From Macrostomum lignano (lineage: Eukaryota): DNA of 64,000 bases. The notes below the pieces were generated by a model that was not told the origin of the DNA, searched no databases, and saw only the letters and a program-made list of their open reading frames with translations. This document shows positions 1 to 2,003 of the stretch, piece by piece; the stretch's first letter is position 1; each line of letters begins with the position of its first letter. The stretch spans positions 1 to 64,000 of the forward strand of contig NIVC01002731.1 of assembly GCA_002269645.1 (NCBI GenBank), in the 5' to 3' direction. The position numbers and the translations under genes were made by a program.

Positions 1-2003
1 TCAAGTACTGGTGGTGGTACTTCTGGTGGAATAAGTGTTACATTCGGAGATAACCGATATATTAATGAAGATGAAGGTTATAAAAAAGTGAAGTTGATAC
101 TAAACTAAATTTAAAAAGAAATGTTGCAGATTCCTATACCAAAACTCAAATAGATAATTCCCTAAATTTAAAACGGAACGTAGCCGATTCATATACAAAA
201 ACAGAGGTTGACAATGGGTTAAATTTAAAAAGAGATATAACTGATTCTTATTCTCGAACTCAAATAGATGATTCATTAAATTTAAAACGCAATACGGCCG
301 ATTCTTATACCAAAACTGAAGTTGATAATTCCCTAAATTTAAAAAGAGATATAACTGATTCTATACCAAAACTGAAGTTGATAATTCCCTAAATTTAAAA
401 GAGATATAACTGATTCCTATACCAAAACCGAAGTTGATAATTCCCTAAATTTAAAAAGAGATATAACTGATTCTTATAGCAAAACTGAAGTTGATAATTC
501 CTTAAATTTAAAAAGAGATATAACTGATTCCTATACCAAAACGAGGTTGATAATTTAGTTGGAGGTGGAGCCTTAAAGCAGGATCGATTCCAAACGGTTG
601 AAACTGGTCACATACCTACCATGGCAGATTGGAGTGGAAATGGTTTTGCAATAACCGCAAGCACTGCATTTAATACAACTGATTTTGCAAGTTGGAAAGC
701 GTTTGATGGAAATGATTCAACAGATTGGGCAACAAATAATACTCAAACCGATTATTGGATTCAAGTCCAATGCCCTTCCGCAATAATGTGTTATAAAATT
801 GATTTACGTGGTAGGCCATCACCTTCAACCGAGCACCCAGCATCATGGCGATTTGAGGGAAGTAATGACAATACAAGTTGGGACGTATTAATACCTGCGG
901 ATAGTTCTGTAGCAATAAATAACTCAACTCAAACAATTAATGTCACACAAAATTTTGATAAAACATATTCATATTTCAGATTGTTCTGTCTTACATCAAC
1001 TCGGGTTCAACCAACCCGGGTCTGTCAACCTTCCAGATTTATAGACAGACGTTTACAATTCTTGATTTAAATTTGGGAGTGGTTAATCAATCAATTGATA
1101 TGGGAGGTAATACAATTACTAATATCTCTACTATAAACAATAACAGTTCTGTTGTTACTAAAGGTTATGTTGATACGCGAGTAACACAAACGGCGGATGG
1201 CCGAATGTCTTTTAACGATAAAATAAAATTGGATGGAATACCTGCAATCGATGCCGCTTTGTACGAGCCTGTAATTTGCAATTGGACTGGATATCAAAAC
1301 CCAACCACAGCCGGTGATATTTTTCCAACTGGAAGTTTTGTTGGTAGCGCTACTTATATTGATTATCAAAATGGAGCTAGAATTACTGATGAAGCAAGTG
1401 GTCAGTCTGGAGCGTTGCAATTTAATTTCACCCATTTTCGTAATATCTCCGCCTCCTTCTATTTCCGAGTTGCTAATGCTACAGGAGATGGTGCTGATGC
1501 GGTTTGGTTTTATGCATATTGTCACGAACGCCAACAACTGAATTTGGATCCGGGTTAACAACCCGCGCCGGCTTGATTGTGTTTGCGAGTGAATGGCATG
1601 ATAGAGTTGGGGTTGTTTGGAGCAATATAAAATCAGACGGAGCAACAGTTCGTAATGATGTTCTTAATGACGCAGATCAAACTATAACCTATGCTAATAT
1701 TGATAACGGCGATTGGCATCTTTTTGAAATTAATATTTTAAATCAAAGAGTTTGGTATCAAATAAGCACATACAATGTATCAGCTAATACATATACGCTA
1801 ATTGGGCAAAACTTTTTTACATATGATAGCGGAACTTGGGGAGATTTAGATAAAACGGAACTCTTATGGGTTTTGGTGCTCGAACTGGAGGATCGGATGC
1901 TGCACATTTTATTCGTGGTGCAGCCGTTTGTGGTAGCACATCAGCAGGATATGATTTTGCTGCGACCGCATATTTGGAACGGCCACAAACCGAAATAACT
2001 TAA
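1..2003 (+). pseudogene. Frameshifted fibre/receptor-binding-like gene: 19-aa shaft repeats, F5/8C (discoidin-like) domain, stalk motif, C-terminal L-type (legume-like) lectin domain; 5' end outside window
   Basis: Restoring single bases near ~85, ~360-400 (two), ~541, ~999, ~1531 and ~1858 joins ORFs 621-1070, 1073-1558 and 1504-1998 into one frame ending at TAA 2001-2003. Motifs: WKAFDG...DWAT...WRFEGSND...NPGLSTFQIY (discoidin); MGGNTITNI...VTKGYVD (fibre stalk); GDGADAVWF...MGFGARTGGSDAAHFIR (L-lectin). Confidence 0.7.
72..557 (+). repeat. 57-bp coding tandem repeat (DSYTKTEVDNSLNLKRDIT), about 8 units
   Basis: Units start at 129, 186, 243, 300, 357, 412, 469 and 526. The 357-411 unit is 2 nt short. 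Confidence 0.95.

Follow-up and report, generated by a model that had tools for sequence, protein, structure and literature searches.

We begin by considering the described fibres that stand closest to the gene of this report, each cited for the accessible part of its source. The fibres of protist PLVs are modular and phage-like, with laminin-G, H-lectin and discoidin modules (PMC12220804). Tetraselmis PLVs have a tail fibre plus an FA58C gene (10.1101/2025.10.09.676808), and the Ltf fibre of PLV PgVV-14T has been detected in particles (10.1101/2022.07.28.501842). The MELD viruses, which are non-animal, have genes that are labelled 'Fiber' and 'Lectin' (PMC8502044). Among the Polintons, a fibre-like gene is reported from oomycetes, and the elements of nematodes swap pPolB and use a fusogen (10.1101/2023.08.22.554363). 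The fibre of porcine adenovirus 4 (NADC-1) bears tandem galectin domains that have been shown to bind (PMC3562239).

The open question that we address is [quoted passage not shown] In the accessible text of a vertebrate Maverick survey, particles are given as unobserved and neither 'fibre' nor 'receptor' occurs (PMC8097293); neither 'fiber' nor 'lectin' occurs in that of 10.1101/2025.04.19.649669. In a literature search outside of which lay most subscription papers and the supplements of PMC12220804 and PMC8502044, we find no description of a lectin fibre or of head exchange in animal Mavericks. The original prediction, which was made from the letters of this DNA and supposed that a fibre with two glycan-binding folds had not been described for Mavericks, holds to that extent. 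As a wider claim it does not hold, since lectin and discoidin fibres are already published for PLVs (accessible parts of PMC12220804, PMC8502044 and 10.1101/2025.10.09.676808). What is new here is a set of four exchanged head architectures in animal Mavericks, together with a non-canonical pocket.

The gene lies at the start of a contig of the 764 Mb Macrostomum lignano genome, which has rhodopsin-family receptor and VIP36-like lectin genes of the host, and the first 64 kb of this contig are referred to as the window. Like the fibres of protist PLVs, as far as the accessible descriptions go, the protein combines a repeat shaft with carbohydrate-binding-type modules and belongs to the capsid block of a Preplasmiviricota element. 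Unlike the protist PLVs, the element is an animal-integrated Maverick with polymerase and integrase, and its fibre has a discoidin and an L-type lectin on one chain, without an S74 chaperone or collagen. Neither an L-type lectin nor an exchange of heads between co-resident copies is mentioned in the accessible PLV fibre descriptions. The likeness to porcine adenovirus 4 is that of a vertex fibre in a related lineage, tipped by two carbohydrate-binding domains, with glycan-dependent entry in the adenovirus. In the accessible account of that virus, however, both domains have the galectin fold and are presumed to come from vertebrates, whereas the Maverick fibre, known here from sequence and models, has two different folds with relatives among phage and bacterial modules, and its shaft repeat is not adenoviral. 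With the nematode Polintons, as described in the accessible text, it shares module exchange between co-resident elements, the unit here being the attachment head within one gene.

The Maverick element

Bases 1 to 10523 of the window are AT-rich; they are the right part of a Maverick whose left half is off the contig (Table 1). In inverted orientation, the right terminal inverted repeat matches the left end of one sister copy at 98% identity and that of another at 97%. At 10256-10337 it repeats its own tip internally, inverted and with 86% identity. The polymerase is broken in this copy, with motifs A, B and C at 5072-6381 on the minus strand. We take YLDANNLYG, KLMNNAFYGK and YADTDS to be the motifs of a protein-primed polymerase B; the region has no Pfam polymerase match, and an Endonuclease_7-like region (E 1e-6) falls within the whole polymerase interval of Table 1.

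Table 1. Features of the Maverick part of the window.
Feature	Position	Strand	Evidence or comment
N-terminal tail of fibre gene	1..81	+	likely a penton-anchoring segment; start codon before contig start
19-aa shaft repeats	84..555	+	57-bp period, 8.3 copies; frame changes near 361, 400, 542
F5/8 type C (discoidin/CBM32-fold) domain, class A	603..1050	+	Pfam PF00754; frame change near 1000
MGGN...TKGYVD stalk motif and DGRMS...KLDG linker	1100..1240	+	PHROG 6907, E 2e-4
L-type (legume/ERGIC-53/VIP36) lectin-fold domain	1259..1973	+	frame changes near 1530, 1856; final piece of gene ends at stop codon 2001-2003
Small accessory ORFs of Maverick	2033..4627	both	no informative Pfam match
Protein-primed DNA polymerase B, several frames in this copy	4617..8582	-	motifs YLDANNLYG, KLMNNAFYGK, YADTDS
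331-aa ORF, adenovirus pX-like core-protein motif	8651..9646	-	Adeno_PX, E 1.8e-4, below curated cut-off
Right terminal inverted repeat (308 bp)	10216..10523	.	inverted match to sister left ends

A longer gene order can be read in the sister copy L012, where integrase, a 493-aa DJR-like capsid, an A32 ATPase, a 292-aa ORF, a cysteine protease and the fibre gene follow each other. The integrase, which lies outside the window, matches rve with E 1.3e-6, below the curated cut-off, and the ATPase matches Pox_A32 with E 1e-6. The 493-aa capsid-like protein is placed by the ESM Atlas at 0.98 with viral clusters, some of them DJR-like. The protease has His/Asp/Gln/Cys motifs, which we take to be a cysteine protease signature. 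The 292-aa ORF stands at the expected place of the penton and has no Pfam or PHROG match. At the same locus, the integrase-bearing frame (L012:3173-4429, minus strand) starts with a weak phospholipase A2-like match (E 0.02). Another locus, L045 (G000:C110:523900-533700), has two protease-fibre blocks in tandem, 5.3 kb apart, which suggests a partial element duplication.

The fibre gene

The motifs named by the original prediction all lie on the plus strand of window 1-2003, in the order that it gave, and they make up the module order of N-tail, 19-aa shaft repeats, F5/8C domain, MGGN stalk and L-type lectin fold. Its estimate of about seven single-base gaps agrees with the seven frame switches that are counted from diagnostic peptides, near 81, 361, 400, 542, 1000, 1530 and 1856. 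That these pieces form one gene, as it also held, is confirmed by the sister copy L006, in which all modules are in a single natural 634-codon frame. The start codon is absent from the window because the contig begins about 12 codons into the gene. A set of independent short genes was considered as well and is ruled out by the continuous frames of sister copies. The fibre gene is real.

The gene is repeated many times in the genome, which holds more than 100 Maverick copies. Between the window and nine sisters there are only 3-10 substitutions over 556-2010. A DNA search of the genome gave 174 candidates, and all 40 of those that were scored match at 91-100% identity; a protein search gave at least 156 matches from the 121 scored of 285 candidates. 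A Met-to-stop fibre frame of 623-682 aa is found in 18 of 69 fetched loci, which were picked from hit lists and not at random. The assembly has many small frame errors within these repeats. Short-read contigs of four public runs continue across the breaks at 81, 542 and 1530 in 4/4 runs and across those at 1000 and 1856 in 3/4 runs, so that five of the seven breaks are covered, the remaining two being inside the repeats; as these contigs may derive from any copy, they do not tell errors of sequencing in the window from decay of its copy. Eight assembly copies, the window among them, have the break near 1000, which may therefore be a real lesion of one sub-lineage. The window stretch is present in 20 public runs, most of which are only guessed to be RNA.

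The gene is under purifying selection, with pairwise dN/dS of 0.06-0.22 on uninterrupted distinct copies: 0.18 for the lectin (28 copies), 0.06 for F5/8-A (10 copies) and 0.22 for F5/8-B (12 copies). The protease, computed in the same way, has 0.10 (35 copies).

Modules and folds of the fibre protein

The protein has the layout of a fibre, with an N-terminal anchor, a repeat shaft and a C-terminal head, and by inspection it has no signal peptide or membrane segment. The phage-fibre character that had been proposed for the shaft and stalk motifs is borne out by PHROG matches, which for the shaft are PHROG 5004 (E 2e-16) and the tail-fibre PHROG 10305 (E 3e-9); the discoidin and the shaft together are tied to tail and tail-fibre families. 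The number of shaft repeats varies between copies. The stalk is modelled with low confidence as a monomer and is likely to be trimeric. In class B, one of the other head classes set out below, the stalk motif gives a weak YadA_stalk match (E 0.05).

The two predicted folds, discoidin and L-type lectin, are both recovered when Pfam, Foldseek and structural alignment are taken together. The F5/8C domain matches PF00754 with E 2.5e-12 in the window and 1.3e-11 in L006, scoring 45 bits against a Pfam cut-off of 28.2. Its model with the stalk has pLDDT 81 (core >90) and finds CBM32 modules and F5/8C domains by Foldseek at E 8e-9, and also neuropilin b1, CASPR2 and APC10, all three of which bind proteins. 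The F5/8C module of class B has no Pfam match, and the model-based fold is that of class A only.

The lectin domain has no Pfam match, and its fold comes from the model (pLDDT 80, pTM 0.83), in which a concanavalin-A-like beta-sandwich of L-type topology is present. Foldseek matches this model to ERGIC-53, VIP36 and legume lectins at E 5e-11, the structural comparison (VIA) gives Z 20.6 with an rmsd of 3.2 A over 209 aligned residues, and the domain reaches 0.92 in the ESM Atlas. Compared with predicted viral structures, the model finds virion proteins and tail proteins of phages. Sequence searches of the PDB, started from the pieces of lectin and discoidin, from a lectin profile and from the capsid, returned nothing useful. 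The domain resembles ERGIC-53, VIP36 and legume lectins (PDB accession codes: 4yge, 2duo, 5t7p) in its whole-domain fold, a loop-A Asp and a loop-D Gly-Gly...His; it differs from them in having only 12-19% identity, a Ser in place of the calcium Asp, a lost Asn, and an invariant Glu, Glu and Arg.

Lectin and discoidin pockets

VIP36 numbering was mapped onto the viral lectin by motif, by way of the host VIP36-like exon and 2duo; a profile comparison of the viral lectin with the host VIP36-like protein is not significant (39 columns, probability 3.9%). The sugar-contacting residues of VIP36, in the accessible part of the source, include Asp131 and Gly260 (10.1101/092460). By motif mapping, the equivalents of this loop-A Asp and this loop-D Gly are invariant in all 19 aligned lectins. 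Altogether, 18 columns are invariant across the 19 sequences, down to 27% identity, and the invariant residues in the pocket loops include D84, E99, S115, E116, R213, G215 and H221 (model numbering); Glu99, Ser115-Glu116, Arg213 and His221 are specific to this family. The position of loop-C Asp162, which we take to be a calcium ligand in VIP36, is Ser in 19/19, and that of Asn166 (sugar/calcium) is Asp, His or Ala, both at the level of motif mapping. The canonical calcium/sugar Asp-x-x-x-Asn is absent from the viral lectin. An invariant core of Asp, Gly and family-specific residues without Asp162 and Asn166 makes a conserved pocket at the canonical lectin face likely, as read from the alignment, and one that is not the canonical calcium-mannose site.

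In the discoidin, the conserved Trp is kept in 27 of 28 relatives and an Arg in 22 of 28. The galactose site of CBM32 is presumably formed by a His after this Trp, plus the Arg. This His is missing: the position after the Trp is Ala, not His, in 24/28. The original prediction had taken it as established that both folds bind carbohydrates, and of this the folds themselves stand; the binding is overstated, as the canonical calcium and sugar residues of the lectin and the CBM32 His are gone. We lean toward a lectin pocket that binds a glycan through the Asp, Glu, Arg and Gly that are invariant in it, together with a metal site of non-canonical type. For the discoidin, a glycan ligand is possible though not the favoured outcome, the alternative being a lipid or a protein.

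Around the invariant core, the five pocket loops change about twice as fast as the other loops, with 72 amino-acid vs 85 synonymous changes on the tree; there are 72 vs 174 in the other lectin loops and 91 vs 205 in the strands. These counts come from 27 of the 31 lectins, L003 (with a frame-shifted segment) and three identical rows having been dropped. An exact permutation over 19 loops gives p 0.005-0.006 for the pocket loops, which were chosen after the alignment was seen, in counts that recombination inflates. A Fisher test gives p 0.0009, treating as independent changes that are not. The site-level tests of the pocket loops are not significant (p 0.19 for site entropy, p 0.08 for per-site change counts), and the amino-acid to synonymous ratio of the pocket loops is below 1. 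The result is suggestive of a fast pocket rim around a fixed core, short of proof of positive selection.

Head classes and their exchange

Four head architectures occupy the slot after the protease. Class A, that of the window, has tail, shaft, discoidin A, stalk and lectin. Class B has tail, shaft, two stalk motifs, discoidin B and lectin, the discoidin being about 34% identical to discoidin A and the lectin 78-84% identical to that of class A. Class C, with four loci that all have stops, has tail, shaft, an A-like discoidin (77%), stalk and a second discoidin, without the lectin. Class D is that of a second Maverick family, with a protease that is 63-66% identical, and has tail, short shaft and two discoidins in 455-476 aa. 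The full open fibre frames described above divide into 6 of class A and 12 of class B. The N-tail motif is common to classes A and B and to the class C locus L094, and it is weaker in the second family. This second family (L082-L091, L096) is distinct and of high copy number, with its polymerase closely 3' of the tandem-discoidin fibre on the same strand. At the class C locus L093:608-1618 (minus strand), a pX-like gene is just upstream of the protease, an order that differs from that of the window's element.

"Do the heads follow the lineage of the element?" On a protease tree of 32 rows the A/B label changes 7 times, against a mean of 8 when shuffled. The tree is a mosaic in its own right, poorly resolved with 14 of 29 branches open, and recombination distorts the counts made on it. 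The starred branches alone force at least 5 changes, a class A clade is rejected (AU p 1.5e-5), and the nearest A-B protease pair differs by 1.5%. This scattering of the head class over the protease tree indicates that the heads are exchanged. On the lectin tree (25 rows) the label changes once (100/100), and the two counts together indicate that discoidin and lectin travel as a cassette which recombines against the backbone. Discoidin A groups with the first discoidin of class C (100/100). Discoidin B groups with the first discoidin of class D (99/98), which points to exchange between families. The head swapping between element copies that the original prediction proposed to look for is thus found, as four architectures at one slot that are uncoupled from the protease lineage.

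Relatives elsewhere

Among the best 150 of 2088 representative matches, 104 have the shaft only, 29 the discoidin only and 9 the lectin, and none has a discoidin and this lectin on one chain. A word-index homolog search with the lectin retained none of 4667 candidates; a lectin profile search found four, one of them new. The shaft relatives carry S74 chaperone, laminin-G and phage tail-tip domains and a YadA head. The lectin relatives (24-37%) carry BppL_N, DUF2793 and S74 and are in large viral contigs and giant bacterial proteins; some of the nearest belong to giant bacterial proteins that have ParB or GatB genes next to them, which shows that the domain is not confined to viruses. In a giant-virus contig (L099:802-4426), the gene directly after an F5/8C gene has 964 aa and combines a lectin of this family with laminin G. 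In a metagenomic relative, P0004 (56%), the lectin is accompanied by the class B linker. The lectin belongs to a small family of its own, in which an unusual pocket is invariant and which extends to fibres of phages, giant viruses and bacteria. A recent capture from the VIP36-like gene of the host was tried as an origin and rejected, as PF03388 matches host loci only.

A model for the fibre and its alternatives

The reading that we favour, and consider probable with a good measure of doubt, is that an animal Maverick (polintovirus) uses this modular fibre as the attachment spike at its capsid vertices, with a head cassette that is exchanged between copies. The fibre protein, made in the cytosol, would trimerise, and its conserved N-tail would dock on the penton. 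The 19-aa repeats, being of variable length, would set the reach, and the tip domains would bind a cell-surface ligand, in the case of the lectin probably a glycan, with the discoidin as a second binder. Recombination between co-resident copies would then reshuffle the attachment heads, as in phage tail fibres, and different heads on related copies would likely let particles grip cells in different ways. Transposition within cells would not by itself readily account for exchangeable heads on a common backbone, which suggest that selection acts outside the cell. A conserved and selected fibre gene with foldable tip domains offers a concrete test, by expression of the domains and ligand screening.

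Alternatively, the protein may be a virion fibre whose heads do not bind the glycans of host cells; their target would be a receptor of protein or lipid, or else the surface of whatever carries the particle into the animal (helper giant virus, prey alga or bacterium). The non-canonical metal and sugar residues of both domains favour this, as do the protein binders among the F5/8C matches and the bacterial, phage and giant-virus proteins that are the nearest located lectin relatives; Sputnik, in the accessible text, enters entangled in giant-virus fibres (10.1101/2022.07.28.501842). The invariant loop-A Asp and loop-D Gly of the VIP36 sugar contact speak against this alternative, as do the element's own polymerase, integrase and ATPase, and we regard it as unlikely. 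Less likely still is a protein that is no part of the capsid, an intracellular or host-serving cargo lectin kept by selection during germ-line transposition. The number of copies and their DNA identity within one genome would fit such an intracellular spread, and Maverick particles are unobserved in the accessible survey text (PMC8097293). Yet the gene sits at the same place of the structural block in two Maverick families, has a conserved N-tail with a variable head, carries phage-fibre motifs and lacks a signal peptide, and a PLV fibre was detected in particles (accessible part of 10.1101/2022.07.28.501842).

The exchange itself could be an artefact of assembly, in which near-identical repeats are joined into chimeric contigs, or an old polymorphism without functional meaning. 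The many small frame errors in these repeats and the mosaic, weakly resolved protease tree make this conceivable; it is very improbable in our view, since the starred branches force changes by themselves, full open frames of both classes are found on many contigs, the closest relative of the class B module sits in another family, and the metagenomic relative P0004 combines the class B linker with the lectin. The attachment spike with exchanged heads, as favoured above, can be extended to a bolder and rather doubtful picture. The Mavericks of this genome would be actively circulating viruses with a phage-style interchangeable receptor cassette of at least four heads (discoidin A or B with the non-canonical L-lectin, and tandem discoidins), shuffled within and between families, with a pocket rim that diversifies against host glycans. 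If true, it would give an animal polintovirus its first tropism system of the tail-fibre type, and open a direct way to the receptor.

Other features of the window

About 500 bp from the right end of the Maverick, at 11041-14532 on the minus strand, is an open 1163-codon Gypsy-type gag-pol frame that encodes protease, RT, RNase H and integrase. A 459-aa DUF3504/QRICH1 ORF at 21294-22673 (plus strand) is presumably a Crypton-type tyrosine recombinase. Rhodopsin-family receptor pieces and an ankyrin-repeat ORF, at 18606-19943 (minus strand) and 60037-60861 (plus strand), are likely host genes. Two adjacent ORFs of 328 and 396 aa at 51461-53638 (minus strand), which have no Pfam match, are possibly another recombinase element, and the 396-aa ORF has a 75-bp repeat near its end.
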